Below are positions 6,907 through 20,560 of a DNA stretch of 64,000 bases, in pieces. The notes under the pieces are model-generated. The model saw only the letters and a program-made list of their open reading frames with translations. It had not been told where the DNA came from and searched no databases. The DNA is from Muribaculaceae bacterium (GTDB lineage Bacteria; Bacteroidota; Bacteroidia; Bacteroidales; Muribaculaceae): NCBI GenBank assembly GCA_029058745.1, contig JAIDXM010000049.1, positions 109,069-173,068 on the forward strand, given 5' to 3'. Both the position numbers and the translations under genes were made by a program. Position 1 is the first letter of the stretch. The number at the start of each line of letters is the position of its first letter.

Positions 6907-7030
6907 AAATTAAAATATGTCGGTTATGTCTAATAAAGAAATAGTTGCGCATTAATGTAGGGGCATGACTCCGGGCATGATTGATTCCATACGCATCGCC
7001 CATATATTGCATGCGCATTCTAATGCACTG

Positions 7031-7038
7031 CAAATATA
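7031..7038 (-). promoter_or_regulatory. Candidate Bacteroidota -7 box (TATATTTG)
   Basis: caaatata on + equals TAnnTTTG on the - strand, 125 nt upstream of the 6906 start. The long leader keeps confidence low. Confidence 0.3.
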
Positions 7039-7097
7039 GTGGTTTTAAATGAATTGTGAAAATAAGAGATTGGAATGTTTCTCTTTACCAAAACTTT

Positions 7098-9083
7098 TTA
7101 CCAAAACTTTTGTTCCCTTTTCTCGAAATCGTATTCGAAAATACGCTCTGAACGTCCCCTTGTATGGTTCTTCAGATAGTAGAGCGTGCCTTGTGGTGTC
7201 TGGAAGTCAACGGAGTCGGCGGTTGCCCTTTTTCGTCCCGCGCTGTTCCACCTGCAGGAGCCGAACCAGAACAGTTCGTATTCGTCGCCTTCCCTGACAT
7301 AGTTGTCGCGGTTGCGCGGCACGAACATCACCTTCCCCACCGATACGGGGTATCCGAGGTCGAGTGCCGCCCATCCCCCCGATTTCTCCTTATAATCGAA
7401 CGAGGTGAAGATGTCGCCGTCGAAGACCTTGCGGTAATCGTGAGCCGTGTCGCCGTCAACCGCACCGGGAGTGCCGAACACCCTTCCTCGCAGTGGTAGG
7501 CTGTCTGAGGTGTCCGCGTAGAGTCCTATCTCCGCGATGTTGCAGTTGCTCCCTTCCGCGCCATAGTAGCGGTAATACCTGTGGGGGCGCGATTGAGCCG
7601 GGAGCGTCACGTAGTTGACCCTTCTTTTTGCCAATCCGCTGATACGGAAGACGGTGTCTCGCACGCTGAAGGATGGTTCGTCCGAACCCTCAATCACACC
7701 GTCTATGCTGCGGTACACGAGTTCGCCATTCCTCTCGTTGAGCGGGAACTTTGAGTAGGCGGTGAGCATTCCTTCCGTGCCTCCGGGGCCAATCTTGCGT
7801 ATCACCCCTCCCTCTTCCACCACGAACGGCAGACATATGGGGGATAGGACGTTGTCTTCCATACGTGCTGCAACGAGCACCACACCTTGGGAGACATTAT
7901 GGAACACGGGACGGCTACTCCCCGTGTGGAATCCCACAGCCACCCATTCGTTGTTGCCCCACGAAGCCAGATACACCGTGCCACCTCCCTCGATGTCAGG
8001 CAGTTCTATGTCATGACTTCCAGAAGGCTTGTAAACCGCTGTCACGTCGGTCAGCTTCGGGATCCTCAAGAACTTCGGTCGCATAGACGTTTCGGAGGGC
8101 AACTCCGTATCCATACTGTCGTTTATTCCAAATTCCTCGCGGTAAATCTTCGCCGCCACGATGTCGAATTCCGGCGCAGGGACGAACGAGGGATTCTCGG
8201 TGCAGGTCACGTAGGTGCGTCCGTCCTTGCCGATTATGAATGGCCATGAGTGACCTGCACTGTTCTCCCCGCGCACAGGCACCATATCGATGCCTGAAGG
8301 TATTCCGGCCGCACGCATCAGATAAACCACTCCATGGGCGAACTCGCGGCATGTCCCCGCCTTGTCGGTGACGTTTGCGTAACCGAGGGCAGGTCCCGAA
8401 GGGAGTTGCCCGGTCCAACGGAATTCCTTGCGGTTCCAATGTTCCATTATGGCCTGGGCGGCTACCAGCGGGTCATCAACACCGGCTGCAACAAGGCTGT
8501 CGATCACTGGGGAAAACGCGAATAATACTGAATCGCGCCAACATGAAAGCTCTTCATCTCCAATGCGATACGGTAATACGTATCTAAAAAAATTATCCTT
8601 CTTAATATCCGCACACCAAGGGAGATTGTCCCGCATTTTAAAGGCAAGATTTATATCATGTAAAAGATACTGAGTTTTCATATGCCGCAAATCCTCATAT
8701 TTGGTAAGTGCCCTCACACTGAAGCCTTCATCCTTAACGAGAGAATCAATACGTGGGATAGCTTCCTTTCCAGTCTTCGAGAATAAATGATAATATCCTT
8801 GATATGATTTAAGCGCGTGTCCCCCCAAGGTATGGTTGCCTGGCATATTACCTATAAGCCATTCGACAGCTTCACTTTTCTCCTTGTCTCCCTCAAAATA
8901 TAAGATAGCTTCAAGCATCTCCGTGTGGTTGTCTCCGGCAATGCGCAGTGCCTTTTCAAGACTGTCGTTGCCGGAACACGAGACGGTTATTTGAATAAGT
9001 GTCAAAACAAAAGAGACGATTGTAATACCTCTAAAATTCATCGCATTAATTCTATGTAGATCATATATTTTTATGGCGTGCAT
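7098..9083 (-). CDS. Transglutaminase-fold (papain-like Cys-His-Asp) lipoprotein with C-terminal discoidin/galactose-binding-like domain (cassette A)
   Basis: 661-aa ORF; an alternative ATG at 9041 gives the lipobox signal MNFRGITIVSFVLTLIQITVSCSG. TGase core GTCREFAHGVVYLMRAAGIP ... AGHSWPFIIGKDG. The C-terminal about 150 aa (NIAEIGLY ... GGWAALDLG ... YELFWF) looks F5/8-type-C-like. Paralog of 16043-17884. Confidence 0.75.
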   Translation of the reverse strand: MHAIKIYDLHRINAMNFRGITIVSFVLTLIQITVSCSGNDSLEKALRIAGDNHTEMLEAILYFEGDKEKSEAVEWLIGNMPGNHTLGGHALKSYQGYYHLFSKTGKEAIPRIDSLVKDEGFSVRALTKYEDLRHMKTQYLLHDINLAFKMRDNLPWCADIKKDNFFRYVLPYRIGDEELSCWRDSVLFAFSPVIDSLVAAGVDDPLVAAQAIMEHWNRKEFRWTGQLPSGPALGYANVTDKAGTCREFAHGVVYLMRAAGIPSGIDMVPVRGENSAGHSWPFIIGKDGRTYVTCTENPSFVPAPEFDIVAAKIYREEFGINDSMDTELPSETSMRPKFLRIPKLTDVTAVYKPSGSHDIELPDIEGGGTVYLASWGNNEWVAVGFHTGSSRPVFHNVSQGVVLVAARMEDNVLSPICLPFVVEEGGVIRKIGPGGTEGMLTAYSKFPLNERNGELVYRSIDGVIEGSDEPSFSVRDTVFRISGLAKRRVNYVTLPAQSRPHRYYRYYGAEGSNCNIAEIGLYADTSDSLPLRGRVFGTPGAVDGDTAHDYRKVFDGDIFTSFDYKEKSGGWAALDLGYPVSVGKVMFVPRNRDNYVREGDEYELFWFGSCRWNSAGRKRATADSVDFQTPQGTLYYLKNHTRGRSERIFEYDFEKREQKFW

Positions 9084-9091
9084 CGCTCTTG

Positions 9092-9910
9092 TTAAGCATC
9101 CACTCCATCAATTACGAGCTGTAACGGGGAATTGACCGAATTTGTCAGAAGTGTAACTACACTTCGGTAGTTGCCTCGCTTCCGTCTGTCATAGGATATG
9201 GTCAGGTACACGGAGTCCCCCGGTTCTATACGGTTGGCTTCAAGATGCGTTCTTGTGCAGCTGCATGTACTTTCTGTCTCGAACACTATACCTGTCTTGT
9301 CGCCATAGTTGTGGATATAGACCGTGGTGTCAATATGTGGCCTTGAGGTTCGTATCATTACCGTGGACAACCTCAGGTCTGTCTGAACCGGGCAAATCCT
9401 TCGGTAAAAACGCCATCTGTCGGATGCGCTTGCGGGTTTGGCACTGTCAATCACGGTTCCTCCGGGGCCTACAAGGTATAACAAGGGGCGGAGGTTCCTT
9501 TTGCCATACAGTTTTGAAACCTTTCCTGTAATGATTTGTCCATCGAGTCCGTATATTCTGACATGACGCCGGCATTCCGTGGAGAGCGGGGCTTCAGTCA
9601 GGAAAAAATAATATTGCGCTTTCCCATATAGGGGGGATTCTTTACCCGCCATTTTATCTATCCACTCCACGATATGTCCGGAAATAAGGTCATCGCAACC
9701 AACGGGAGCGGCGACTATTTTATAGCCCCCGCCCGTCAGTTCGGTACACTTCGAGAGTTCGGACGCATATCCTACGCCGTGAGGATTCTCTCTCCCGGTG
9801 CTCCCACGGGATATGCATGATGACAGAATTATAATGCATACAATGAAAGAGAATACGGTAACAGAATACGTCCTAAGCCCATTGGATTTATATTTCAATG
9901 TTGCGGTCAT
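9092..9910 (-). CDS. DUF1573-type lipoprotein with degenerate thioredoxin-like N-domain lacking CxxC (cassette A)
   Basis: 272-aa ORF with lipobox ILSSCIS. The C-terminal GIVFETESTCSCTRTHLEANRIEPGDSVYLTISYD matches the DUF1573 pattern (SCxC). The middle PLLYLVGPGGTVID resembles a TlpA-like fold, but only a single Cys (STEC) sits where the paralogs have CxxC. Confidence 0.55.
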   Translation of the reverse strand: MTATLKYKSNGLRTYSVTVFSFIVCIIILSSCISRGSTGRENPHGVGYASELSKCTELTGGGYKIVAAPVGCDDLISGHIVEWIDKMAGKESPLYGKAQYYFFLTEAPLSTECRRHVRIYGLDGQIITGKVSKLYGKRNLRPLLYLVGPGGTVIDSAKPASASDRWRFYRRICPVQTDLRLSTVMIRTSRPHIDTTVYIHNYGDKTGIVFETESTCSCTRTHLEANRIEPGDSVYLTISYDRRKRGNYRSVVTLLTNSVNSPLQLVIDGVDA

Positions 9911-9928
9911 GCTTTGGATGATGTGTTG

Positions 9929-11053
9929 TCAATGCTTGAATCGGAATCGGGCGAGCACTATGTTGTCGTCATCATTGTGTGGAATCTCCCGGCCAGTAAT
10001 CCGCGAGAGAGTGGCAATTTCATCCGAAGGAATCTCGCATAGGGCGTAGTCGTTGCACACGAAAACAGGACGGAAACTTAGTCCCTCGCTGAAATTCCGG
10101 AATCTCTCTCCCTGCCTGTCCACTTTATCGTATATGGCCGTATGGTAGGCCCGTTCCCCATCTTTGTCCGACCACATGCATGCCATATAATAGCGCGGGG
10201 TCTGCCAGTTTTGGGAAAAAACATACGGCAACGAGCCGTCTTCAAGGTCTCGTGTTATTTTCTGTGTGATTTCCGGAGATTCCATCCCCTCAATTGATTT
10301 GACATAAGTGTGCCCGTCAATATTATCACCTCCGAAATCCCATGTATATGCAGCCTTGAGGGAGTCTCCCTCCATTTTATAGACAGTCATGTCGATAGGC
10401 GGGGTGAAATATAGCCTGTCCTCATATATGTTGAACGGAGACGATTGCAGGCCGTCTGTTATCCTCTCATGGAACCATGCGTCGAAAACGGACTTGCCGG
10501 CACCCGTGTCAATTACGGAGATGCCCGGTTCATCCTCTTCGACCTGTGACCACAGGGCGAGCCTCTCCCCATCAATCCATTCGCATCCAAAATAGTTCGG
10601 CTTGTCGAGGGTAAGTCTGTTGCGTCCCATGAAACGGTTGTCAAGAGTGTATTCTATGGTTTCACCGAACGGCGAAAGCATCGTCAGGAACCCTTTTTCC
10701 GGATTGAGAGAAATGTCATAAACCATGTTGTATTCCTCCGGCCCCTCGCCTCTCTTCCCAATCCTGGATATGAACTCTCCCTTATCGTTGAACATGAATA
10801 CCAAGTATCTCTTGTATTCATAAAGAATCATTGTATCACCGACGCATATCGCCTTTGAGATTTCCGACATCAGCGACGAGTCGGATGTTTCAAGTGCTAT
10901 TGGTTCTATCCCGCTGAAAAACTTTTTGTAGGAAGGTGCTTTTTTCGCGTAGCTCACTTTCAACACCTCTCCATCTTCTTGGTCAGCCTGCGGATGCCTT
11001 GTGCATCCACAGGCCGCCATCAGCAGGAGTGTGACCGGCATTATCCTCCTCAT
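9929..11053 (-). CDS. 6-bladed beta-propeller-type lipoprotein (BF3164-like family), cassette A
   Basis: The ORF track starts at a TTG (11074). The ATG at 11053 gives MRRIMPVTLLLMAACGC (lipobox). Family-typical GxGPxE motif IGKRGEGPEEY. Starts 5 nt after the peptide gene stop. Confidence 0.7.
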   Translation of the reverse strand: MRRIMPVTLLLMAACGCTRHPQADQEDGEVLKVSYAKKAPSYKKFFSGIEPIALETSDSSLMSEISKAICVGDTMILYEYKRYLVFMFNDKGEFISRIGKRGEGPEEYNMVYDISLNPEKGFLTMLSPFGETIEYTLDNRFMGRNRLTLDKPNYFGCEWIDGERLALWSQVEEDEPGISVIDTGAGKSVFDAWFHERITDGLQSSPFNIYEDRLYFTPPIDMTVYKMEGDSLKAAYTWDFGGDNIDGHTYVKSIEGMESPEITQKITRDLEDGSLPYVFSQNWQTPRYYMACMWSDKDGERAYHTAIYDKVDRQGERFRNFSEGLSFRPVFVCNDYALCEIPSDEIATLSRITGREIPHNDDDNIVLARFRFKH

Positions 11054-11058
11054 GGCAG

Positions 11059-11307
11059 TCACATCCTTATGCAATAATCCTTAAGATATCCTGAGAAGGC
11101 ACAGTCACGTTTTTGAGAATCCCAATCCCAGCAGGTGCCTTCCTTTGCGCCGCAGATCATGATGAACCCCTCTCCGTCGGATAGGGCGTCGATGTTTTCA
11201 AGCTGTGCTTCCGTCAGCTCACTTTCAGCCGACTGCTTGTTGGCGAATACGAAGCCGTTAACGGCAAGGGCCGCTACGGCGAGCCCTCCGAAAATCATTC
11301 TTTTCAT
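11059..11307 (-). CDS. NVEALA-type small Cys-rich precursor peptide A (82 aa)
   Basis: N-terminal hydrophobic segment MKRMIFGGLAVAALAVNGFVFA, leader helix AQLENIDALS, and the tail DGEGFIMICGAKEGTCWDWDSQKRDCAFSGYLKDYCIRM with 4 Cys. Confidence 0.7.
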   Translation of the reverse strand: MKRMIFGGLAVAALAVNGFVFANKQSAESELTEAQLENIDALSDGEGFIMICGAKEGTCWDWDSQKRDCAFSGYLKDYCIRM

Positions 11308-11332
11308 TAGTTTGATTAATTATAATTTATTA

Positions 11333-11562
11333 AAAAAGGGTTATTACTGTACCTGACACCTCGAAATCGATGTCAGGTCTATTCTCAAAATTGATTGTCA
11401 CACGCCGTAGAAAGTTCCCGGCGGTCGTGTCGGAGAACGATACTTTGCGTAGTAGGAGACGATTGTGAAGTCGGCATCCGGCTTCGCAATCATCCCGCCA
11501 TCCACAAGTCTTATGGAGTCCGGGAAGAGGATTTCCTTTCCGGTCCACTCGATGACAGCTTT
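11333..11562 (-). pseudogene. Internally deleted remnant of a thioredoxin-DUF1573 gene
   Basis: 11333-11440 encodes a diverged C-terminus (FLRRVTINFENRPDIDFEVSGTVITLF vs FLRSVMVYFENQTSPTLRFEVTGQVITN of 13081-13968). 11448-11562 matches 13743-13857 with 2 mismatches in about 115 nt. About 200 codons in between are missing. Confidence 0.75.
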
Positions 11563-11747
11563 CCCCACGAAGCCAGATACACCGTGCCGCCTCCCTCGAC
11601 CTCCTTCAACACTATGTCATGGTTTCCCGAAGGCTTGTAAACCGCTGTCACGTCGGTCAGCTTCGGGATCCTCAGAAACCGTGGGCGTATAGACGGGTCG
11701 GTGGGCAACTCCGTATCCATATCATCGTTAAATCCATAACGTCCCAT
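11563..11747 (-). pseudogene. Internal fragment of a transglutaminase-fold gene fused to the Trx remnant
   Basis: 11563-11735 aligns to 7957-8128 of the cassette-A TGase gene (about 27 mismatches in 173 nt by hand). Encodes DTELPTDPSIRPRFLRIPKLTDVTAVYKPSGNHD vs DTELPSETSMRPKFLRIPKLTDVTAVYKPSGSHD. Lacks both the N-terminus and the catalytic core. Confidence 0.75.
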
Positions 11748-11758
11748 AAAATCATAGT

Positions 11759-12700
11759 TTAAAACTGGAATGTATATAATCGGTCGTCGTTTGACGCCAT
11801 GATGACACGTTTGTTCTTTCTGTCATACGTGAACAGATACCCTACCATTCCCGTATCAATACATGACAGGGCATTACCATCATAGTCGAATCTCTTGATT
11901 TTACTGTTTCCTGTCCCCGTTTTGAAGTCAACGTCCTCCTGCGACAGCACAATAAACCCGTCATCAAGGCATACAACGCAAGAATATGCGAATTCATGAC
12001 CGTCAAGTCCACCTCTCAGTACCGTCAGATTTTTCATCGCTTCCTGTCCCAACCCGGCTATCAGTATTACATTGGATTTCAAAAAGGCCGCGACTATATG
12101 TTTGCCATTAGTGGACCAAAATAAGGGTGAGTCCTTTATGTCCGGGGAAATCTCGCTGCAGTCAATCGAATCCCAGGTCTTTTGATTCTCCATGTCGTAT
12201 ATCTTGAAAACATAGCCGTTCTCACCAAGAACAGTATAACCCAAGAGGGACCTGGAAATTTCACCGGCCATATTAATCACATCTGAACCATATTTTAAAG
12301 TGTCTTTCCCTTCGATTATATGGTGGCGCCAACAATCCGCCACCATCATACGATTTGAGAGCGGTACGACAAGTTCGGGTTCGAGATATTCACCCGGACC
12401 TTCCCCCCTCTTGCCCAATTTTTTCGTTTCTTTAAACGAGACCGGATCAAGCACATGGAACGCAAACGAATCAAGGTCGCTTACACAGATTACGCCACTG
12501 TCGGAATATACCAACTCCACTATGTCGAAATCATATTCCTCCTCTACCGGATTCATACGGACAATAGTGTCACTTACAGTCGCTTCCGGCATACTCCTTT
12601 CTGTGATCTTATGCCGATTTTTTGGGGGATGACCGCAGCTTATTGCAAAGGCAAGGAAAAATATTGCAATATATATATAATACAACCTACGTATCTTCAT
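11759..12700 (-). CDS. 6-bladed beta-propeller-type lipoprotein, cassette B
   Basis: 313-aa ORF with lipobox FAISCGH and motif LGKRGEGPGEY. Confidence 0.7.
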   Translation of the reverse strand: MKIRRLYYIYIAIFFLAFAISCGHPPKNRHKITERSMPEATVSDTIVRMNPVEEEYDFDIVELVYSDSGVICVSDLDSFAFHVLDPVSFKETKKLGKRGEGPGEYLEPELVVPLSNRMMVADCWRHHIIEGKDTLKYGSDVINMAGEISRSLLGYTVLGENGYVFKIYDMENQKTWDSIDCSEISPDIKDSPLFWSTNGKHIVAAFLKSNVILIAGLGQEAMKNLTVLRGGLDGHEFAYSCVVCLDDGFIVLSQEDVDFKTGTGNSKIKRFDYDGNALSCIDTGMVGYLFTYDRKNKRVIMASNDDRLYTFQF

Positions 12701-12714
12701 GTGTGCTTATTTTT

Positions 12715-12765
12715 ATTGGCCTGTGTCCAATCAGGTGTACCCACTGAATATTGACACATGCCAAT
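12715..12765 (-). terminator. Imperfect hairpin between peptide B and propeller B (attenuator/terminator candidate)
   Basis: Arms attggcctgtgtc (12715-12727) and gacacatgccaat (12753-12765) pair at 12 of 13 positions with a 25-nt loop. Confidence 0.35.
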
Positions 12766-12782
12766 TATGGATTTAGTTTCAC

Positions 12783-13073
12783 TTACTGTTGTGTACATCC
12801 GACAGGGTTGTATCCTGACTTTTCCTCGTAACAACAGTCACGGAATCTCGCTTTAGGGGTGGGTCCAACGCGGTTGACATCCCACTTTCTGTAACCGGAT
12901 GTATTGTTGCAGGGTCCGTTTAATTCCACTCCTTCCGTGAGAGCTTCGATGGTTTCCAACTGAAGCTTGCTCAAAGATTGGTCTGGCTGATTGGCTTTTG
13001 AACGCGCGAATCCGCCTGCTGCAAGAGCCACTATTGCGAGTCCCGCAAAGAAAAAGTTTTTCGTCTTTTTCAT
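12783..13073 (-). CDS. NVEALA-type small Cys-rich precursor peptide B (96 aa)
   Basis: MKKTKNFFFAGLAIVALAAGGFA, then the leader SKLQLETIEALT, then the tail EGVELNGPCNNTSGYRKWDVNRVGPTPKARFRDCCYEEKSGYNPVGCTQQ with 4 Cys. Confidence 0.7.
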   Translation of the reverse strand: MKKTKNFFFAGLAIVALAAGGFARSKANQPDQSLSKLQLETIEALTEGVELNGPCNNTSGYRKWDVNRVGPTPKARFRDCCYEEKSGYNPVGCTQQ

Positions 13074-13080
13074 GAGTTTA

Positions 13081-13968
13081 TTAATTGGTTATTACTTGTC
13101 CCGTTACTTCAAAACGAAGTGTCGGAGACGTTTGGTTTTCAAAATAGACCATGACGCTTCTTAGGAAGTTGTCAGGTATTGTGTCGCGGAATGAGACCTC
13201 GACCCTGTAAGGACTCCCTGGAGGAATGATTGTCGGGACGACCGTTCCTGCAGTGCACTCGCATGAGGAAATTACTTCCCTAACGCGGAGAGTATCGGAA
13301 CTCTTGTTCTTCAGGGAGAAGATATGGTATACCGATTCTCCAGGCTTTACATTACCGAAGTCATAGCTATATTCTATCCATTCCCCGTCATCTTCAATAT
13401 TGTTCTCTCTTTTTCCGATTAACGAAAGATAAAGATTGAAGGCACCCTTGCTTTGAACAGGATTTCCGAATGTGAGGACATGGTTGTCGCTGTCGAGAAG
13501 GAACGTCTGCATCAGCGGGTCTTCGGGGAATCCATTCAGTGAATTGATTGCATCACTTGAGTCCAATACCACCGGATAATTGAAATGATCACGCTTCCGC
13601 AGATAATCCAGTCCTTTTTCATCGTTCGAAAAAGCTATCATCAACAGGTTCACGGTTTTGTCTCCGCGCACGGAATCTACGCGTTGCATGAACTCGTTCC
13701 AGAATCTCAGCCTCATACGGCATCCCGTGCAACCGACGGAATCGTAGTAGGAGACGATTGTGAAGTCGGCATCCGGCTTCGCAATCATCCCGCCATCGAC
13801 AAGTCTCATGGAGTCCGGGAAGAGGATTTCCTTTCCGGTCCACTCGATGACAGCTTTCTCGTATGCCTTCCTCTTGCTGTCGCCACACGATGCCGTGATG
13901 CATAGAATGAAGATTGAGATGAATATAGGAAGTGTTGTCTTGACAAAATGTGGCAGTGCTGTACCCAT
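13081..13968 (-). CDS. Thioredoxin-like (CxxC) / DUF1573 fusion lipoprotein, cassette B
   Basis: 295-aa ORF with lipobox ITASCGD. TlpA-like region FTIVSYYDSVGCTGCRM ... TFLLDSDNHVLTFGNP. DUF1573 motif YDFGNVKPGESVYHIFSLKNKSSDTLRVREVISSCECT. Ends 7 nt before the start of the peptide B gene. Confidence 0.75.
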   Translation of the reverse strand: MGTALPHFVKTTLPIFISIFILCITASCGDSKRKAYEKAVIEWTGKEILFPDSMRLVDGGMIAKPDADFTIVSYYDSVGCTGCRMRLRFWNEFMQRVDSVRGDKTVNLLMIAFSNDEKGLDYLRKRDHFNYPVVLDSSDAINSLNGFPEDPLMQTFLLDSDNHVLTFGNPVQSKGAFNLYLSLIGKRENNIEDDGEWIEYSYDFGNVKPGESVYHIFSLKNKSSDTLRVREVISSCECTAGTVVPTIIPPGSPYRVEVSFRDTIPDNFLRSVMVYFENQTSPTLRFEVTGQVITN

Positions 13969-13983
13969 ACCGACACGTTAAGT

Positions 13984-14352
13984 TCAGATAACACCGGAGT
14001 AATACTCTCCGTCAATTGCGACGATGACCGACACGCTCTCCTCTCCATCGAATGTAAAGCTATATCCGTCGAGAAGGTTTGCCTGTTGCCGCATCACGAT
14101 AACTCCGCTTTTACTGCCAGAGGCGGTTATGACCCCTTCTGTGTCGTAGTCGCAATATACTGTGATTTCATTGCCGGTTACGATACAATAGACGGGCGAC
14201 CAGGCGGGCATCCTGGGGTAGTCATGAGTATTTGTGTTGTCTTTCTTTAGACGAATCTGCTCCGGATTTTTTTGTTCAGCGGAATTGGTTGCCACGGAAC
14301 AAACGAACGCCACCGCGAGCATGAGAATTGTCATGAATTTTCTCATTTGCAT
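13984..14352 (-). CDS. Small secreted protein, DUF3244-like
   Basis: 122-aa ORF with a signal peptide (MTILMLAVAFVCSVA). The C-terminal pattern VSVIVAIDGEYYSGVI resembles the DUF3244 family ending. Similar in kind to 55016-55411. A canonical -7 box lies upstream. Confidence 0.45.
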   Translation of the reverse strand: MQMRKFMTILMLAVAFVCSVATNSAEQKNPEQIRLKKDNTNTHDYPRMPAWSPVYCIVTGNEITVYCDYDTEGVITASGSKSGVIVMRQQANLLDGYSFTFDGEESVSVIVAIDGEYYSGVI

Positions 14353-14380
14353 GTTGATTTACGGGTTAATTTGAATGTTG

Positions 14381-14388
14381 CAAAGTTA
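14381..14388 (-). promoter_or_regulatory. Bacteroidota -7 box TAACTTTG
   Basis: caaagtta on + equals TAACTTTG on -, 29 nt upstream of the ATG at 14352. Confidence 0.5.
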
Positions 14389-14488
14389 TTGATTATTAGA
14401 AGAAAATGCAAGCTTTCCCGATATTAAATTTTCTTTCTGAAGAATTTTTTTAATGTGAGTTAAATATTGATTATTAATGAAATAAAGA

Positions 14489-14518
14489 GAGCGGAAGGAT
14501 TTTGAAATCTTTCCGCTC
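14489..14518 (-). terminator. Hairpin terminator after propeller C
   Basis: gagcggaagga / tctttccgctc stem (one G-U pair), followed on the - strand by the U-rich tctttatttcatt. Confidence 0.5.
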
Positions 14519-14623
14519 CCTTTCACCCTCTTTCCTCTCAAGGTATGTGATGAAATAGTGGTTGCGGGGTGGCGGATTCACCCTCCGGAGGGGAGCGTTC
14601 CCCACGGTTTAAGAATGCTGTGG

Positions 14624-15649
14624 TCAGTCGTCGAGCTGTATATATCCGAACTGAGGTTCACCGTCGGTGTGTATGAACAGACGGTTCGTGCCATGGTGAT
14701 ATGTCATGTCGTTCACTCTGGCCTCCAAATGTAATGTCTTTATGTATTTCCCGTCAAGATCCATCACAAAGATATCCTTGCCATACACAGAGTTGTCATT
14801 TCTTATATCAGAGCCGTTATAGCTTACGTACAGCCGGGCGCCTGCTATCACAGGGCTACTGAAATAATAGGAGACTCCATCATGTTTTTCTTTATAATCA
14901 GATCCGTAGATAGTCTTCTTGAGATTTCCGTCGGTATCAAAAATCTTGATTCGGTCGTGGGTGTATCCGGTGGATACGATAATATTCTGATTGATGTCAA
15001 CCGCAATCTGGCACTTCCCGACATCTCCGGAAGAAACGGTGTCAATAAAGGTTGCTGCACCTGAATCCGGATTGAAACGACCGAGACGGGATGAAAAACC
15101 GGATTCTCCCGGTCCATAGAGAGAACATAATACGGTGGTGTCGTTGACGTAATGGGGCGCGACGAAAAGAGTCATATAGTCACTATTGTCAAGCCTCACC
15201 TTATCGAATGCCTTGCATGTTGAGTCAGAGAGAGCCTTCTCCATATTTATTCCCTGCAATGTCATGCGTCCCGTGTTCAGTGCAAATATATTCCCACCTC
15301 GGTCGGCATATAATCCGCCGAGATATGACATCTCCCCGGGTCCGGTGCCGAATTTGCCGAATGAGCCGACATATCTTTCTGAGGCGATGTCATAGGCGGC
15401 GAACAGACGGTCGCGCTGTTGTCCGTCATAGATTATCAGCGTGTCTCCGGATATTATGAGATTGGAATTTGAATGCATCGGAGGTAGGGTGGAATCAATA
15501 GATATAAGTTGTACTGATTCCACGTTATCACGCTTTCCGGCAGTTTCCTCTATAGGATGGCCTGTAGAGGCGCGGCATGACCATAGCACAGGACACATAA
15601 TTAAGGAAATGACCGAAATTCCACACGTTCTGACTATATTTACTTGCAT
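14624..15649 (-). CDS. 6-bladed beta-propeller-type lipoprotein, cassette C
   Basis: 341-aa ORF with signal/lipobox CPVLWSCRA and motif FGKFGTGPGEM. The start overlaps the end of the peptide C gene by 10 nt. Confidence 0.7.
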   Translation of the reverse strand: MQVNIVRTCGISVISLIMCPVLWSCRASTGHPIEETAGKRDNVESVQLISIDSTLPPMHSNSNLIISGDTLIIYDGQQRDRLFAAYDIASERYVGSFGKFGTGPGEMSYLGGLYADRGGNIFALNTGRMTLQGINMEKALSDSTCKAFDKVRLDNSDYMTLFVAPHYVNDTTVLCSLYGPGESGFSSRLGRFNPDSGAATFIDTVSSGDVGKCQIAVDINQNIIVSTGYTHDRIKIFDTDGNLKKTIYGSDYKEKHDGVSYYFSSPVIAGARLYVSYNGSDIRNDNSVYGKDIFVMDLDGKYIKTLHLEARVNDMTYHHGTNRLFIHTDGEPQFGYIQLDD

Positions 15650-15885
15650 GGTACAGGTGTGGAATTTGGGATGGCCGCAGAACTACTTAACAGACAATAA
15701 TCATCGCCGGATGCGAGGCAACATTGGTCATACTCAGACTCAATCCACCATTCCTTGTCGGTTAGGGCGTCCAGGTTTTCGAGTTGCGAAGGAGAGAGTT
15801 CCGTGTGCGACTCCATCTTGGCTGTTGTGAAGCCTGCCGTTGCGAGGACTGCGATTCCGATGCCGAAAAAAATACGTTTCTTCAT
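15640..15885 (-). CDS. NVEALA-type small Cys-rich precursor peptide C (81 aa)
   Basis: MKKRIFFGIGIAVLATAGFTTA, then the leader SQLENLDALT, then the tail DKEWWIESEYDQCCLASGDDYCLLSSSAAIPNSTPVPCK with 4 Cys. Confidence 0.7.
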   Translation of the reverse strand: MKKRIFFGIGIAVLATAGFTTAKMESHTELSPSQLENLDALTDKEWWIESEYDQCCLASGDDYCLLSSSAAIPNSTPVPCK

Positions 15886-16042
15886 GTCAAATAAAATTTT
15901 ATGGTTATTATTAGAGTTGGTTTATTTCTCCTTAAATCTCGAAACGGGATTCCGGAAGGTTGTTTTCGAATTAGAAAGGCTTTGCGCGTAAAATCGCATT
16001 ACACAATCTCAAACCATTTGCAGTTCCCATGGAATAGTGGAA

Positions 16043-17884
16043 TCACCACCATATCTGCCTGCCATTTTTAAGTGTGAATGGACGCTCCTCTTTCCCTTTT
16101 GTAAGGTCATGAAGCAGAAGCAAAGCTCCCTCCGGGATGTTGTCATATATCAGTTCATATCCATCGCTGAGTTGTCTGCCGAGTGATCGCCATTTCTCTC
16201 CGTCCCACCATGTCAGTTCGTATTCGTCTCCGGGTTCAATGAAGTTGCCGTCATGCCGAGGATAGTAGTCTATCCGCGAAATCTCCACAAGTCTGCCGAA
16301 ATCAAGATTTCGCTTACCCGTTGATTCTATGACTTTGCCGTCAGGCCCGTATGCCGCAAGACTGTCGATGTAATGTCGTGCGGGATGGTCTGTCTCTGCC
16401 CATAGGCATCGGTAACGTCCGGACTGTTTAATGTATGCGGTGTTATGGAATATGGGCACATCAGTGATTGTGTATAGAGTCACCGGATTACGGAACCCTG
16501 AATCGGTTGCCGCCATAATTCTTGTGCCGGGCATCTGTGCATAGCCGTTTAGTTTTCCTGGGCTTATAGGATATTTCCGCGTCAGTGTGGCTGAGACTTT
16601 TCTTGAAGTGTCGGCGGTAATCTCTATCTTCATACCACGGCTGATGTAAAACGGATTTCCGACAGCTTCCGGCCTACCGTCTCTCAACGTCATAGGTAGA
16701 AGCATAACGGAGTCTCCTATGTTAGTGAAAATGGCTTTTCCATTGTCGGTCGAGGCATAAGCCTGGGCAATCCATCCGGAAGAGAGGGAGTGTGTGCAGA
16801 GCCACACGTATTCTACCTCATTCCCGGCATCGACCGTAACTTCCCCGGTCAGCCCGTATTCTGCCGAAACATCAATACTTCTATGATGGTTAATCCATGC
16901 AGAATTCCCGAAATGTGGCGCGTCTTTTGCAGGATTTACGTGGAAGGTGGAACGCCACACCTTGACGACCCTCTTGCGGAAATCGCCGTCGTAGGGATAA
17001 CCCTCCGGCATCGGTTGCTTGAGCACGTATCCGCTCGCGTCAATCTTATTGTGCTTCCTTGCCACAGAGTCATCGTCAACGATAGTGTAAGTGCCACCGG
17101 GCAACACAAGCGACACCCATGAATGGACGTTGTCGCTGTAGTTGGCCCATCGCCCGCAGTTGTCGTATGCTACAGGCAGTCCCATGGCGCGGCATACCCC
17201 CGCGAGATAGATGCAGCGTTCCTTGCATATAGTGGAGAAATAGTTGCGGTAAGCCACCACATCCATAAGGTGCGGATATTTCAGGGCTTTTGTCTTCTTC
17301 TGTGAGAATATCTCACTGTGGATTATCTCGAATGCCCTGCGCGGGTCTTTAATCCCCTTTAGCAATGGATGGAACTTTACTTTAATAGAGTCACGCCAAC
17401 CGGAGCGCAGAGGTTCATCGGCAATCCTGTATGGAAGGATATGACATAGGAAGCTGTCGAAGTCCACGCTGTCTCGCCATGGACTCTCTCTCCATGTCCT
17501 GAATGCACCGTCGATATTGTCGATGAGCAATCCGGAGGACATGGATGAGAGGTCGGTACGCCTTTCCGGTCTGGGTATATTCTGGGATATTGCCATCCAC
17601 AGGGAGTCTGCCTCCGCCTTTGTCATGGCCTTTGCGGCAATGGAATCGGAGAAAGTGCGGACAGCTTCGCCATAGACAGCGTAATGACCGGGCATGTTGA
17701 CAATGAGCCATTCCGCCGCCTGTAGTTTCTCCGGCTCGCTCGAATAATGTTCCAGAACCTTTTCCAGTTCAGCACGGTTTTCTCCTGCATGGTCAAGCGT
17801 CGCCGTGAGATTTCCGTTGCGCGAACAGGAAATAAGACTCATGACTGCAATGAAGATTAGAAATATTCTATGCCAAGTCTCCAT
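16043..17884 (-). CDS. Transglutaminase-fold lipoprotein with C-terminal discoidin-like domain (cassette D)
   Basis: 613-aa ORF with lipobox MSLISCS. Core KERCIYLAGVCRAMGLP ... NVHSWVSL ... DDD. The C-terminus GDEYELTWWDGEKW parallels GDEYELFWFGSCRW of 7098-9083. Confidence 0.75.
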   Translation of the reverse strand: METWHRIFLIFIAVMSLISCSRNGNLTATLDHAGENRAELEKVLEHYSSEPEKLQAAEWLIVNMPGHYAVYGEAVRTFSDSIAAKAMTKAEADSLWMAISQNIPRPERRTDLSSMSSGLLIDNIDGAFRTWRESPWRDSVDFDSFLCHILPYRIADEPLRSGWRDSIKVKFHPLLKGIKDPRRAFEIIHSEIFSQKKTKALKYPHLMDVVAYRNYFSTICKERCIYLAGVCRAMGLPVAYDNCGRWANYSDNVHSWVSLVLPGGTYTIVDDDSVARKHNKIDASGYVLKQPMPEGYPYDGDFRKRVVKVWRSTFHVNPAKDAPHFGNSAWINHHRSIDVSAEYGLTGEVTVDAGNEVEYVWLCTHSLSSGWIAQAYASTDNGKAIFTNIGDSVMLLPMTLRDGRPEAVGNPFYISRGMKIEITADTSRKVSATLTRKYPISPGKLNGYAQMPGTRIMAATDSGFRNPVTLYTITDVPIFHNTAYIKQSGRYRCLWAETDHPARHYIDSLAAYGPDGKVIESTGKRNLDFGRLVEISRIDYYPRHDGNFIEPGDEYELTWWDGEKWRSLGRQLSDGYELIYDNIPEGALLLLHDLTKGKEERPFTLKNGRQIWW

Positions 17885-17910
17885 GAAAAATCAGGTTTAA
17901 TTATGCCGGT

Positions 17911-17949
17911 TCAGTCGTCGAGCTGTATGTAGCCGAACTGAGGTTCGCC
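17911..17949 (-). pseudogene. Orphan 3' end (last 12 codons plus stop) of a cassette-C-type propeller gene
   Basis: 17911-17949 matches 14624-14662 with 3 mismatches in 39 nt (encodes GEPQFGYIQLDD-stop). Sits between propeller D and TGase D. Confidence 0.6.
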
Positions 17950-17977
17950 AAGATATGTCAAACTAATTGTGTAAAGT

Positions 17978-19066
17978 TTAGTATTGCATTTTGATAGGTA
18001 CCGAAATCATGATTGAGCGTTTCTCGTCAGACTCCTTTCCGAAAGCTATGATTTTGCCAGTATCTGTAATTGTTGCGGGTGGATAAATATCCTTATCCGG
18101 CATCAATGTGCGTTCAAGCGTTCCTTTCTTGTCATAGATTTCAAAATAGAGCCGATTGTAATCTTCGGATTTTTTATATCTGCGGGCGGCTATTATCTTG
18201 TCCTTGTATTTAAAAGCACTCCATACACCACCTCCGAATCCTTCCTTGATTCTTGTGGTGGCGGACCGTGTTGCCGTTTCGTCATTGTAATCATATTGAT
18301 AAGGAGCAATCATCCTTTCGTCAACAAGAGAATATGTCTCGCCATTTCGTTCATATACACTAATCACATATGAGCTGAACACGACAAGGCTTTCATCGTC
18401 ATTCATAACAATTGAATTTGTCTGATGGAAATTCCCGAGTATTCCGATTGAAAGATCTTTCTCCTTCTCCCATAGTCTTGGGAATGTTCCGAAGCGATTT
18501 TTGATATTTCCGACACTGTCAAGCAATATAAAACGATACTCCTGGTCATTTTTTTCCATAGAACCAAATGGCATAACAGAAACAACATATTCTCCATTAG
18601 GCATTGCAAAGACATTTGAACTCTCTCCGGGGAGCATAAAAAGCTTTTGAGATTTACTCCCGTCCAGTTTTTCGGAAAATAATGTCATAAGAGGGCGTGA
18701 GTAAATCAGGATACTGTCCGGTTTTAGATAAAAACTGATTGGACGTATCATTTCTCCCGGTCCGTTCCCTACCGCTACCATGTTTTTTAGAGTCTTTCCG
18801 TCTTCAAGCCTTAGCACTTTTATTATACTGTCGCCATAATGATCGGCTACATATATATACTTATCCATACATTGCATTTCTGCCGGGTATCCTATACTTT
18901 CATTGGCAACAAGCTCCTGAAATATAATTTGTTCCGGAGAGTCTTGTTGAGAGGCGTTGTTTCTATTGCAAGATAGAGTTGTCAAACAGCTTGCTATGAC
19001 GGCTAATACGGCAATCCTTATTTCTATTTTTTCCTTTTTCATAAAATATAGGTTTGTATAAAGCAT
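17978..19066 (-). CDS. 6-bladed beta-propeller-type lipoprotein, cassette D
   Basis: 362-aa ORF; the alternative ATG at 19042 gives MKKEKIEIRIAVLAVIASCLTTLSCN (lipobox). Motif VAVGNGPGEM. Confidence 0.7.
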   Translation of the reverse strand: MLYTNLYFMKKEKIEIRIAVLAVIASCLTTLSCNRNNASQQDSPEQIIFQELVANESIGYPAEMQCMDKYIYVADHYGDSIIKVLRLEDGKTLKNMVAVGNGPGEMIRPISFYLKPDSILIYSRPLMTLFSEKLDGSKSQKLFMLPGESSNVFAMPNGEYVVSVMPFGSMEKNDQEYRFILLDSVGNIKNRFGTFPRLWEKEKDLSIGILGNFHQTNSIVMNDDESLVVFSSYVISVYERNGETYSLVDERMIAPYQYDYNDETATRSATTRIKEGFGGGVWSAFKYKDKIIAARRYKKSEDYNRLYFEIYDKKGTLERTLMPDKDIYPPATITDTGKIIAFGKESDEKRSIMISVPIKMQY

Positions 19067-19082
19067 ATGTTAATTATGTGTT

Positions 19083-19090
19083 CAAAATTA
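19083..19090 (-). promoter_or_regulatory. Candidate internal -7 box TAATTTTG ahead of propeller D
   Basis: caaaatta on + equals TAATTTTG on -, 17 nt upstream of the ATG at 19066 and 41 nt upstream of the ATG at 19042. Confidence 0.4.
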
Positions 19091-19275
19091 GTTAATGCAT
19101 AGCTTCATAAAATCTGAGGCGAACTTTCAAATCCGGATTCAGTTACAATGTCCCCCCTTTGCGCCATCATCCGAATCCAAAGTTTAATCCGCATATTTCA
19201 TAATCTATACGATACTTAATTTAGCATACATACTTATGAAATTATCTTCATAGTTCAAAGGTTATTAGTAAATCA

Positions 19276-19306
19276 GTCTTGAAGTACGGATACCGTACTT
19301 CAAGAC
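19276..19306 (-). terminator. Perfect 14-bp hairpin downstream of peptide D (terminator/attenuator)
   Basis: gtcttgaagtacgg - ata - ccgtacttcaagac, a perfect 14-bp stem starting 33 nt after the peptide stop. No U-tract follows. Confidence 0.6.
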
Positions 19307-19338
19307 AACTTCCATACATAAATTGTGGAGAGGGATCT

Positions 19339-19578
19339 TCAGTGTTTGGGCATATAAAAGATATGAATGGTATTGCCCTGAGATATCCTGTGGCACTCCG
19401 TTTCTGCCGGTAGTGGGCATTCTGTAACAGGAGCATTTTCCTGGTCTGTAAGAGCCTCAATTGTTTCGAGTTGTAAGGCAGAAAGCTGTGTCTGATTGGC
19501 GTTGGAATACGCGAATCCTCCTGTCGCGAGTGCTATTATCGCAAGCCCCACGTAGAAAAAGTTTTTCGTCATTTTCAT
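19339..19578 (-). CDS. NVEALA-type small precursor peptide D (79 aa)
   Basis: MKMTKNFFYVGLAIIALATGGFA, then the leader SALQLETIEALT, then the tail DQENAPVTECPLPAETECHRISQGNTIHIFYMPKH with 2 Cys. Confidence 0.65.
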   Translation of the reverse strand: MKMTKNFFYVGLAIIALATGGFAYSNANQTQLSALQLETIEALTDQENAPVTECPLPAETECHRISQGNTIHIFYMPKH

Positions 19579-19589
19579 GATTTTATTGA

Positions 19590-20489
19590 TTAATTGGTTG
19601 TTACTTGTCCCGTTACTTCAAAACGAAGTAGCGGAGACGTTTGGTTTTCAAAATAGACCATGACGCTTCTTAGGAAGGAGTCAGGTATTGTTTCGCGGAA
19701 TGAGACCTCGACTCTGTAAGGACTCCCTGGAGGAATGATTGTCGGGATGACAGTTCCTTCAGTGCATTCGCATGAGGAAATTACTTCCCTAACGCGGAGA
19801 GTATCGGAACTCTCGTTTTTCATGGAGAAGGTATGGGATACCGATTCTCCAGACTTTACATTACCGAAGTCATAGCTATATTCTATCCATTCCCTGTCAT
19901 TTTCAATATTGTTCTCACTTTTTCCGATTATAGAAAGATAGAGATTGAATAATCTTTTATTTTGAATTGGATTACCGAATGTTAAAACCTTATTGTTTTT
20001 ATCAATAAGAAATGTTCGCATAGAGTCATCAACTGGAAATAAATTCAAGGAATTAATATGGTCTTTAGGGTCGTATATTATATTGTATTTGAAATCATCA
20101 TATTTTTGAATCCGTTCCAAATCTTTTTCAAATACAGAAGCTGCAATCATCATGAGATTTACGGTTTTGTCACCGCGCACGGAATCTACGCGCTGCATGA
20201 ACTCGTTCCAGAATTGAAGCTTCATGCGGCATTCAGAGCACCCGATGGAATCGTAGTATGATACGATTGTAAAGTCAGCTTCCGGTTTAGTGATTATTTC
20301 ACCTCCTACAAGTCTCATGGAGTCCGGGAATAGGATTCTCTTCCCCGTCCACTCTACGACGGCTTTCTCGTATGCCTTTCTCTTGCTGTCTCCACACGAT
20401 GCGACCGTCAGAAGGCCAAATGCCGTTAGGACATACGGTAGAATGCGCCTGATGGAAGAGGCTGCGTTTTTTCCGATATTAGTATTCAT
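19590..20489 (-). CDS. Thioredoxin-like (CxxC) / DUF1573 fusion lipoprotein, cassette D
   Basis: The ORF track starts at 20555, which overlaps the -7 box. The ATG at 20489 gives MNTNIGKNAASSIRRILPYVLTAFGLLTVASCGD, a proper lipoprotein signal. CxxC is GCSEC. DUF1573 motif YDFGNVKSGESVSHTFSMKNESSDTLRVREVISSCECT. Confidence 0.75.
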   Translation of the reverse strand: MNTNIGKNAASSIRRILPYVLTAFGLLTVASCGDSKRKAYEKAVVEWTGKRILFPDSMRLVGGEIITKPEADFTIVSYYDSIGCSECRMKLQFWNEFMQRVDSVRGDKTVNLMMIAASVFEKDLERIQKYDDFKYNIIYDPKDHINSLNLFPVDDSMRTFLIDKNNKVLTFGNPIQNKRLFNLYLSIIGKSENNIENDREWIEYSYDFGNVKSGESVSHTFSMKNESSDTLRVREVISSCECTEGTVIPTIIPPGSPYRVEVSFRETIPDSFLRSVMVYFENQTSPLLRFEVTGQVTTN

Positions 20490-20552
20490 AAACCGGAAAT
20501 TGCGATGGCATGTCTTTAGGTATATTTTCATGGTGACAAGGTTATCGTTTTG

Positions 20553-20560
20553 CAAATATA
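20553..20560 (-). promoter_or_regulatory. Candidate -7 box TATATTTG heading the array
   Basis: caaatata on + equals TATATTTG on -. Sits just downstream (on the - strand) of the SGNH-gene terminator. Confidence 0.45.

Follow-up and report, generated by a model that had tools for sequence, protein, structure and literature searches.

Four small open reading frames (ORFs) of a Muribaculaceae bacterium very probably encode exported peptides built from a common leader and an exchangeable core, each co-inherited with a cognate beta-propeller lipoprotein. They belong to a gene cluster at 5185-20555, entirely on the minus strand, of a 64,000-nucleotide stretch of DNA (GenBank assembly GCA_029058745.1, contig JAIDXM010000049.1, positions 109,069 to 173,068 of the forward strand), which is called the window here and to which all positions refer. 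A preliminary description of this DNA had pointed out the four ORFs (peptides A-D); they lie exactly where it placed them, on the minus strand, and its leader strings were reproduced letter by letter. It missed the decisive feature, which is the co-varying six-bladed propeller lipoprotein encoded beside every peptide.

Gut Bacteroidales carry many genes for six-bladed beta-propeller lipoproteins and small NVEALA proteins, so far unexplained. Both families are already catalogued, without a known function, and the literature searched contains no description of how they pair, of the exchange of modules or of the accessory genes. Pfam lists PF14055 (NVEALA) without a function, and searches on NVEALA, DUF5128, PF14055, PF17170, BF3164, DUF1573, DUF4221 and PF15869 returned incidental mentions and no functional study. 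Families of this set occur incidentally in rows of a transcriptome table (PMC10434189). Regarding the propeller and NVEALA genes as matched, exchangeable modules with what appear to be their own folding, processing and export genes turns two groups of unknown function into a testable system.

Peptides and their propeller partners

All four peptides start with M1 and K2 followed by a Gly/Leu/Ala-rich hydrophobic stretch, a Gly-Phe pair and the pattern L..QLE..AL, and past AL[T/S] their alignment consisted essentially of gaps. The N-terminus is signal-like; then comes a helix of the form LSxxQLExIEAL[T/S], ending in ENIDALS, ETIEALT, ENLDALT and ETIEALT, and then the sequences diverge. Peptides B and D, whose leaders had been described as alike and whose tails as unrelated, are 77% identical over 44 leader codons and 14% identical over the tail. 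Aligned as DNA, their cassettes were 80-95% identical over the upstream gene and on into the leader, up to a point a few codons past ALT where homology ended. A repeat finder returned the corresponding blocks 13077-13376 versus 19586-19885 (94%) and 12975-13086 versus 19480-19591 (78%).

Sec-like regions were recognized by inspection in B (...LAAGGFA↓RS), A (...GFVFA↓NK) and C (...GFTTA↓KM), where the arrow marks the boundary, and no lipobox Cys was seen in them. The N-terminus of peptide B was parsed as a Sec signal composed of MKKTK, NFFFAGLAIVALAA and GGFA↓RS. The uncharged N-terminal stretch of the peptides is 18-21 residues long, a length also compatible with a membrane anchor. Sequence and profile searches of the PDB with the peptides gave no match, the tails had no match in Pfam, and neither the peptides nor the propellers matched an NCBIfam family. 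The AlphaFold2 (AF2) model of peptide D, with helices at 8-18 and 34-43 and a hairpin at 63-74, was of low confidence (predicted local distance difference test, pLDDT, 57) and was left out of the fold search.

Peptides A, B and D matched PF14055 at E=4e-5 to 5e-3 with scores (Table 1) that are all below the gathering threshold of 27 bits, and peptide C had no match to this family. A profile of the four window peptides found 16 close homologues, and the exhaustive profile search recovered 205 representative clusters at E<=1e-3, almost all of 70-110 aa. Some of these clusters carry precomputed PF14055 matches (P0036, P0052 and neighbours). Since the profile recovers canonical PF14055 members, the window peptides were assigned to a divergent branch of the NVEALA family. 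They resemble canonical members in length (~70-95 aa), in the basic and hydrophobic N-terminus, in the LSxLxLxN[VI]EAL[A/T/S] motif, in the Cys-rich tail and in the position directly upstream of DUF5128/TolB_like/DUF4221 propellers, and they differ from them in scoring below the threshold and in having the motif QLE[NT][IL][ED]AL[TS].

The cluster representatives were combined with 203 peptide ORFs from 95 sequence sources to give 284 unique motif-bearing relatives, which were aligned on the leader end. Their logo reads S(-12) D L x L x N(-6, 90%) [VIL] E(-4, 89%) A(-3, 94%) L(-2, 95%), then residue -1 and x x E(+3, 84%); residue -1 is A in 60%, T in 22%, S in 13% and G in 3%, together 98%. 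The preliminary description had proposed such an alignment, with per-site conservation and substitution rates across ALT, and here the information content falls from 2-4 bits at -13 to -1 to less than 0.7 bits beyond +4, with 3.2 bits at the +3 Glu. The break that it had seen in four peptides is thus real and family-wide, but its edge does not lie right after ALT: the conserved block includes three more residues behind AL[T/S], the last being the +3 Glu, and in C-type peptides ~11 residues past ALT are conserved (DKEWWIESEYD). At 35% identity, 269 of 271 leaders fell into one cluster and the tails into 107 clusters. Mean pairwise tail identity was 17%, versus 16% for shuffled tails, and within one locus leaders were 60% and tails 18% identical.

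The tails of the relatives have a median length of 39 aa and are mostly anionic and hydrophilic (76% net negative; grand average of hydropathy -0.54). In the window they carry 4, 4, 4 and 2 cysteines in A, B, C and D, and the even number noted there extends to the family: the count is even in 236 of the 284 tails and in 80 of 97 tail classes (50% expected, p=2e-11).

The view of the cores as hypervariable did not hold. The tails form about 100 discrete conserved classes, which are reused with different leaders. The D-type core (Table 1) was found behind at least 8 leader variants, A-, B- and C-type cores likewise recur with other leaders, and a single leader can carry several unrelated cores (P0067, P0072, P0073, P0099, P0108). 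The ratio of non-synonymous to synonymous differences (pN/pS) between orthologues was 0.2-0.4 in leader and core alike, and each tail class is under purifying selection. The core is sometimes better kept than the leader, as in peptide D and its relative at L010 (core 68% and leader 44% identical). For the leaders of B and D, pS was 0.67 and pN/pS 0.30.

Peptide C and its relative at L003 form a recombination mosaic. Their DNA is ~99% identical from 75 nt before the ATG to ~13 codons past ALT and then ~45% identical through the core into the next gene; pS is 0.03 in the leader and 0.75 in the core. Taken together with the conserved, reused tail classes, this mosaic indicates that diversity arises from module exchange at the leader and not from accelerated mutation.

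In the window, every peptide gene is followed by a gene for a lipoprotein of 313-381 aa at a gap of -10 to +272 nt. The overlap of the peptide C and propeller C genes recurs in L005, where it is 4 nt. Propeller A is listed with a TTG start, which would give a 16-nt overlap with peptide A; more probably translation begins at the ATG at 11053, 6 nt past the peptide A stop, for a length of 374 aa as in the L001 orthologue. Over all sources, 168 of the 189 peptides with a downstream gene (89%) are followed by a same-strand propeller, with a median gap of 74 nt and frequent overlaps.

The four window propellers are barely alignable with one another. Each is 74-99% identical to propellers beside the same tail class in other contigs and 35-41% identical (E=1e-42 to 1e-75) to those that accompany this class in distant organisms, where the leaders are different. 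Propeller B had no Pfam match and only 2 homologues in a word-indexed search; with the genes after the B-type peptides P0035 and P0060, whose leaders differ, it shares 37-41% identity (E=1e-42 to 1e-75). Propeller D is 76% identical to the propellers beside D-type peptides in L006 and L009 and 35% identical (E=2e-73) to that in L010, where the leader is different. Co-variation was computed over 113 unique pairs. When leaders were at least 70% and tails less than 30% identical, the median propeller identity was 0 (n=422 comparisons); when tails were at least 50% and leaders less than 50% identical, it was 44% (n=16 comparisons). The propeller class therefore tracks the tail class and not the leader, and this holds for each of the four window classes. 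A conserved N-terminus, a swapped C-terminus and a cognate downstream gene agree with the polymorphic-effector logic that the preliminary description had suggested.

The AF2 model of propeller C is six-bladed (pLDDT 86.7, predicted template modelling score 0.84). Its best Foldseek neighbours were NHL domains (Thin, TRIM71, Brat), followed by Drp35, G-beta, BamB and the Bacteroides DUF4221 structure 3s9j. Different propeller classes are <25% identical and have only structural NHL residues in common. From the model and its structural neighbours we are confident in predicting an NHL-type ligand-binding scaffold. An enzymatic propeller (lactonase-, amidating-lyase- or glutaminyl-cyclase-like) was set aside, since only the NHL structural residues are common and the top structural neighbours are binding scaffolds. 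Some C-class propellers (P0179-P0183, 512-532 aa) carry an acidic linker and, at the C-terminus, a further domain of ~130 aa without a Pfam match. In B. fragilis, divergent propeller genes adjoin ubb (PMC5705921) and may represent the same propeller families in a variable region.

Organisation of the cluster and related loci

The features of the cluster are listed in Table 1. In transcription order it consists of thioredoxin-DUF1573, peptide D and propeller D; transglutaminase-like, peptide C and propeller C; the 122-aa protein; thioredoxin-DUF1573, peptide B and propeller B; gene fragments, peptide A and propeller A; and finally the DUF1573 lipoprotein that has lost its CxxC, the second transglutaminase-like lipoprotein and the regulator candidate with tetratricopeptide repeat (TPR), transmembrane (TM) and helix-turn-helix (HTH) regions. 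A strong terminator-like hairpin at 20759-20730 on the minus strand (13 pairs and a T-run), between a GDSL-lipase gene and the first gene of the cluster, marks the upstream edge. It was the only element returned by the promoter and terminator scan, whose sigma-70 model does not cover Bacteroidota promoters.

Table 1. Features of the cassette cluster in the window
Feature	Position	Strand	Length	Description	Matches
Peptide A	11059-11307	-	82 aa	leader ...LTEAQLENIDALS; 4-Cys tail class GFIMICGAxxGTCW...RxCxFSGxLxDYC	NVEALA 21.4 bits
Peptide B	12783-13073	-	96 aa	leader ...LSKLQLETIEALT; 4-Cys tail class PCNNxSGY...FRDCCYEEKxGYxPxGC	NVEALA 17.0 bits
Peptide C	15640-15885	-	81 aa	leader ...SPSQLENLDALT; 4-Cys tail; last 10 nt within propeller C gene	
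Peptide D	19339-19578	-	79 aa	signal-like N-terminus, LSALQLETIEALT helix; 2-Cys tail, widespread class ECPxPxxxECxRIxxGNTIHIFY	NVEALA 23.6 bits
Propeller A	9929-11074	-		DUF5128 six-bladed lipoprotein; 98% identical to 374-aa L001 partner	Pfam DUF5128 E=4e-35; PDB 4raa and NHL domains by sequence
Propeller B	11759-12700	-		very divergent propeller-like lipoprotein, GKRGEGPGEY NHL-type motif; partner of B-type tail	
Propeller C	14624-15649	-		six-bladed NHL-type lipoprotein; 74% identical to L005 partner of C-type peptide	Pfam TolB_like E=9.6e-13
Propeller D	17978-19066	-		six-bladed TolB_like/DUF5128 lipoprotein; partner of D-type tail	Pfam, TolB_like E ~1e-12
Thioredoxin-DUF1573 lipoprotein	19590-20555	-		upstream of peptide D; TlpA/StoA-like thioredoxin (CSEC) and DUF1573 Ig-like domain (SCEC)	Pfam DUF1573 E=2.6e-17
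Thioredoxin-DUF1573 lipoprotein	13081-13968	-		upstream of peptide B; thioredoxin-like (CTGC) and DUF1573; 3' 300 nt 94% identical to 19586-19885	NCBIfam StoA_CxxC E=1.2e-4
DUF1573 lipoprotein	9092-9910	-		second CxxC Cys lost (VGCDDL), DUF1573 CxC kept	Pfam DUF1573 E=3e-11
Transglutaminase-like Cys-His lipoprotein	16043-17884	-		cluster 2 member; family has discoidin/F5-8C-type C-terminal domain	weak Transglut_core E=0.038
Transglutaminase-like lipoprotein	7098-9083	-		cluster 2; GTCREFA...HSW; CBM6/discoidin-like C-terminal domain	Transglut_core E=8.2e-7; CBM6 structure 2yb7 E=3e-9
Secreted protein, family not assigned	13984-14352	-	122 aa	similar small proteins beside regulator/oxidoreductase genes in related loci, weak similarity	
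Regulator candidate	5185-6906	-		lipoprotein-type signal, periplasmic TPR-like domain, one TM helix, coiled coil, HTH-like C-terminal region	
Gene fragments, putative recombination scars	11330-11747	-		upstream of peptide A, after propeller B; pieces of a thioredoxin-DUF1573 gene and a transglutaminase-like gene	

In the thioredoxin-like domain, CxxC is kept in at least 80-90% of 26-43 homologues, and the DUF1573 domain keeps CxC. A profile of the N-terminal domain matched StoA (3erw) at E=1.9e-4 over 112 residues, a sequence support that is weak but consistent. The DUF1573 lipoprotein at 9092-9910 may be a redox-inactive paralogue. The transglutaminase-like cluster 2 has 70 members in 46 loci, with a lipoprotein Cys and invariant C220 and H254 in 51 of 51 sequences. 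Homologues of the regulator candidate, which has weak TPR matches, lie beside L009, L010 and L011, and one is next to the locus in L001 too. Lipoboxes without the acidic surface-export signal predominate among the propellers, oxidoreductases and transglutaminase-like proteins, which suggests that these proteins face the periplasm.

Traces of rearrangement were found in the array. Two pieces of neighbouring genes lie between propeller B and peptide A: 11448-11563 matches 13743-13858 in the thioredoxin-DUF1573 gene at 98% identity and 11560-11736 matches 7954-8130 in the transglutaminase-like gene at 84%. Judged by this similarity, they are scars left by earlier rearrangements of the cassette array. 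A sister strain (L001, contig ERZ14208416) was compared with 5185-13968 and has the same A and B cassettes, with partners 98-99% identical, in a different order. In L001 a second, degenerate copy of peptide B, with ALP for ALT and an altered C-terminus, lies upstream of peptide A.

Related loci were characterized by unbiased clustering of the neighbouring ORFs at 78 metagenomic loci, for which the canonical ...EALA leader motif had served as the seed. The typical order is a divergent ToxR-like regulator, then peptide-propeller, thioredoxin-DUF1573, further peptide-propeller pairs, transglutaminase-like, Peptidase_S26 (signal peptidase I type), Wzy_C/TPR, a membrane fusion protein (MFP) and a resistance-nodulation-division (RND) protein. 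Genes were counted in 19 long loci of at least 14 kb each, which hold 2-7 peptides and 2-11 propellers per locus. The propeller was present in 19/19, thioredoxin-DUF1573 and the transglutaminase-like gene in 16/19 each, the ToxR-like regulator in 15/19, Peptidase_S26 in 12/19, Wzy_C in 11/19, MFP in 8/19 and RND in 6/19. Catalytic residues are intact in the S26 proteins, where both the Ser and the Lys box of signal peptidase I are preserved, in the transglutaminase-like proteins and in the CxxC domain of the thioredoxin proteins; these accessory proteins look functional.

The window differs from these canonical loci in having no S26, Wzy_C, MFP or RND gene in 5185-20555. With all ORFs of at least 150 aa annotated, the same interval contains no ABC transporter and no C39 peptidase, and the recurrent gene clusters of 95 loci include no C39-peptidase ABC transporter. 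No radical SAM, YcaO, LanB/C/M, lanthipeptide synthetase or RRE-type gene (RRE, RiPP recognition element; RiPP, ribosomally synthesized and post-translationally modified peptide) was found at the window locus. A genome-contig scan returned one locus, L009, in the metagenome-assembled genome of an uncultured Porphyromonadaceae. The scan of 2.9 million viral contigs gave 1 match, thus the system is not phage-borne.

Proposed function and competing explanations

We tentatively favour, with somewhat less than even confidence, the reading that gut Bacteroidales compete by means of these pairs, each made of a polymorphic microcin-like secreted peptide and a cognate lipoprotein that gives immunity or sequesters the peptide. 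The peptides would enter through a Sec-type signal, with a basic n-region, a hydrophobic stretch of ~18 residues and small residues at -3/-1. Next would come the conserved amphipathic pro-helix LSxxQLExIEAL[T/S] with x-x-E, whose end resembles an A-x-A signal-peptidase-type site, and after it a core of 35-50 residues with paired cysteines. Since AL[A/T/S] has small residues at -3 and -1, as the rule for signal peptidase I demands, and an S26 paralogue is present in related loci, a pre-pro-peptide whose pro-helix is removed near this site is suggested. The pro-region could be cut off by the signal peptidase I paralogue, which most related loci have and this one does not, or by the transglutaminase-like Cys-His lipoprotein, of which there are two copies here and which would be the only candidate protease in the window.

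The exported core would be oxidised in the periplasm by the CxxC thioredoxin-DUF1573 lipoproteins of the locus. Disulfides had been proposed from the even cysteine numbers, and the presence of these thiol-disulfide oxidoreductases is consistent with their formation. Coyne et al. argued that the thiol oxidoreductase encoded in bacteroidetocin loci forms the disulfides there, because Bacteroides are without a general machinery for this (PMC6671954); following this precedent, the CxxC lipoproteins would make the disulfides of the cores. The folded core would then specifically bind the six-bladed NHL/TolB-like propeller lipoprotein encoded just downstream, and in full loci the RND/MFP pump could move the peptide out of the periplasm. 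Core and propeller are inherited and exchanged jointly as one module. The leader may be constant because it serves a shared export and processing machinery and acts as a recombination homology arm.

Toxin and immunity were ranked first because of the exchange at the conserved junction, the multi-cassette arrays, the fragments at 11330-11747, the changed order in L001 and the propellers without a peptide. The genes could provide new narrow-spectrum peptide toxins with their immunity proteins, or else a strain-recognition code; each of the two would matter for colonisation resistance and for how strains compete in the human gut. They are also a clean natural case of leader-anchored recombination that shuffles peptide cores and partners. 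The broader proposal is that a previously undescribed group of polymorphic peptides, exported by Sec and disulfide-bonded, extends across the Bacteroidales. With more than 100 core classes, matched to propellers and served by the oxidoreductase, the transglutaminase-like enzyme, S26 and RND, they would constitute a new interbacterial toxin/immunity system or a kin-recognition system of ligands and receptors in the human gut; taken as a whole we consider it doubtful, though conceivable.

Several known systems share parts of this layout. As in bacteroidetocins, double-glycine class II bacteriocins and microcins (pneumococcal blp; class IIa microcins V and L), a short conserved leader precedes a diverse peptide of ~40 aa with 2 or 4 Cys, and, again as in these systems, several leader-sharing peptides occur per locus and vary between strains. 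The thiol oxidoreductase encoded alongside bacteroidetocins (PMC6671954) corresponds here to the CxxC lipoproteins at 13081-13968 and 19590-20555. Unlike in double-glycine bacteriocins, the window leaders end in AL[T/S] with no GG/GA/GS at the junction, the N-terminus is of Sec type, no C39-peptidase ABC transporter is encoded, the partner is a large propeller lipoprotein and not a small membrane immunity protein, and related loci offer a signal peptidase I paralogue and an RND/MFP pump as candidates for export.

The heat-stable enterotoxins STa and STb of E. coli are made as ~70-aa precursors in which a pro-region stands between the Sec signal and a small Cys-rich peptide; this peptide is oxidised in the periplasm and then leaves through a TolC-dependent pump. 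The pre-pro-peptide layout is alike; however, there is no sequence relationship, and STa/STb have no cognate partner, are not polymorphic and target the host. Polymorphic toxin-immunity cassettes, such as CdiA-CT/CdiI of contact-dependent inhibition (CDI), Rhs and orphan modules, likewise have a conserved N-terminal part, a sharp junction and a variable C-terminal part that co-varies with the next gene, and they occur in arrays with recombination scars and strain-dependent order. In contrast to CDI and Rhs proteins, the window peptides are of ~80 aa, with no delivery domain and no recognisable toxin fold, and the partner is a periplasmic lipoprotein. Immunity lipoproteins of the LanI type in lantibiotic producers (NisI, SpaI) are membrane-tethered and bind and sequester the cognate secreted peptide. 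The propellers would play the same sequestering role if the proposal holds, here with an NHL propeller fold, in a Gram-negative periplasm and without lanthionine chemistry.

A number of observations weigh against the toxin-immunity reading. The anionic, hydrophilic tails (76% net negative) are unlike the cationic, membrane-active class II bacteriocins; being Gly/Ser-rich and non-cationic, they do resemble Gram-negative class II microcins in composition. A lipoprotein of 310-380 aa is large as an immunity protein for a 4-kDa peptide. The AL[A/T/S] site lies ~20 residues past the hydrophobic segment, farther than normal signal peptidase I sites, the window leaders end in T or S and not A, and the locus has no S26, Wzy_C, MFP or RND gene and no exporter. 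About one quarter of the propellers have no adjacent peptide, the AF2 model of peptide D reached only the low pLDDT given above, and the literature searches found no paper on an NVEALA peptide-propeller system.

Some of these points suit an obligate two-subunit envelope complex, in which a small disulfide-bonded subunit, anchored or periplasmic, is permanently docked on the propeller and diversity reflects ligand or surface specificities. We consider this rather unlikely, though it is the strongest of the alternatives. Tight gene coupling and deep tail-propeller co-variation are typical of obligate partners, and the co-variation is explained equally well. The hydrophilic anionic tails resemble small folded domains, the propeller looks like an NHL-type binding scaffold for which Foldseek also gives G-beta, the 18-21-residue uncharged stretch is long enough for an anchor, and the window locus is without an exporter. 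Methylamine dehydrogenase offers a parallel, with a small disulfide-rich exported subunit MauA, the propeller MauB and the thioredoxin-like MauD that is needed for the small subunit; G-beta/gamma is a further analogue of a propeller with a small subunit. The window encodes three comparable elements, whereas the Mau propeller is seven-bladed, its single small subunit bears a cofactor and is not polymorphic, and no homology was found. In the tails no conserved cofactor-type residue is seen. A permanent complex also leaves unexplained the conserved pro-helix ending in small-x-small and Glu, the signal peptidase I paralogue and RND/MFP genes of related loci, the cassette swapping at the leader between strains and the propellers without a peptide.

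Polymorphic signalling or kin-recognition pairs appear improbable. Here the processed peptides would be cues read by their own propeller receptor and/or by the periplasmic TPR domain of the membrane-bound HTH regulator, so that strains would communicate specifically, following the Phr/Rap pherotype logic. The TPR-TM-HTH regulator adjoins the window locus, L001, L009 and L010/L011, a ToxR-like membrane regulator is present in most long canonical loci (see above), and the peptides are built as pre-pro-peptides, with pairs that diversify jointly. However, the propellers have no output domain, 2-7 different peptides per locus are too many, one regulator would face many unrelated cores, and two-disulfide peptides of 35-50 residues are large as pheromones.

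A RiPP-type product is less probable still. The leader would recruit a tailoring enzyme, either a transglutaminase-like cross-linker or an enzymatic propeller, that modifies the core before the leader is removed. The preliminary description had read the leader-core switch as a hallmark of RiPP and bacteriocin precursors; the architecture stands, but no RiPP tailoring enzyme, GG motif or C39 ABC transporter accompanies it. The leader/core logic and the invariant Cys/His pair of all 51 transglutaminase-like sequences would suit such a product, and the Wzy_C (O-antigen-ligase-like) protein of related loci could modify the peptides. Against it stand the absence from the locus of the RiPP enzymes listed above, the candidate enzymes being all exported lipoproteins and not cytoplasmic, and the even Cys count, which indicates plain disulfides; the low identity between propeller classes, with only structural NHL residues in common, argues against a common catalytic role. 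Finally, there is practically no chance that the small ORFs are non-functional by-products of segmental duplication of the 3' end of the upstream gene, with the leader as duplicated DNA: the B and D cassettes do share duplicated DNA from the upstream gene into the leader, but hundreds of homologues with conserved synteny, purifying selection on leader and core (including the B/D leaders) and tail classes kept across distant lineages effectively refute it.

Elsewhere in the window

For the 493-aa lipoprotein at 57568-59049 (minus strand), which has a KYGTHF...G motif, an assignment to MACPF/BSAP was considered and found unsupported, with no Pfam match at E<=0.01. A low-GC island at 53109-57443 (35-41% GC) contains no NVEALA-like peptide and no propeller. 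It begins with a second TPR-TM-HTH regulator paralogue (53109-54764). Behind this lie a 131-aa secreted protein (55016-55411) similar to the 122-aa protein of the cassette cluster, a 349-aa lipoprotein without a family and an outer-membrane protein beta-barrel.

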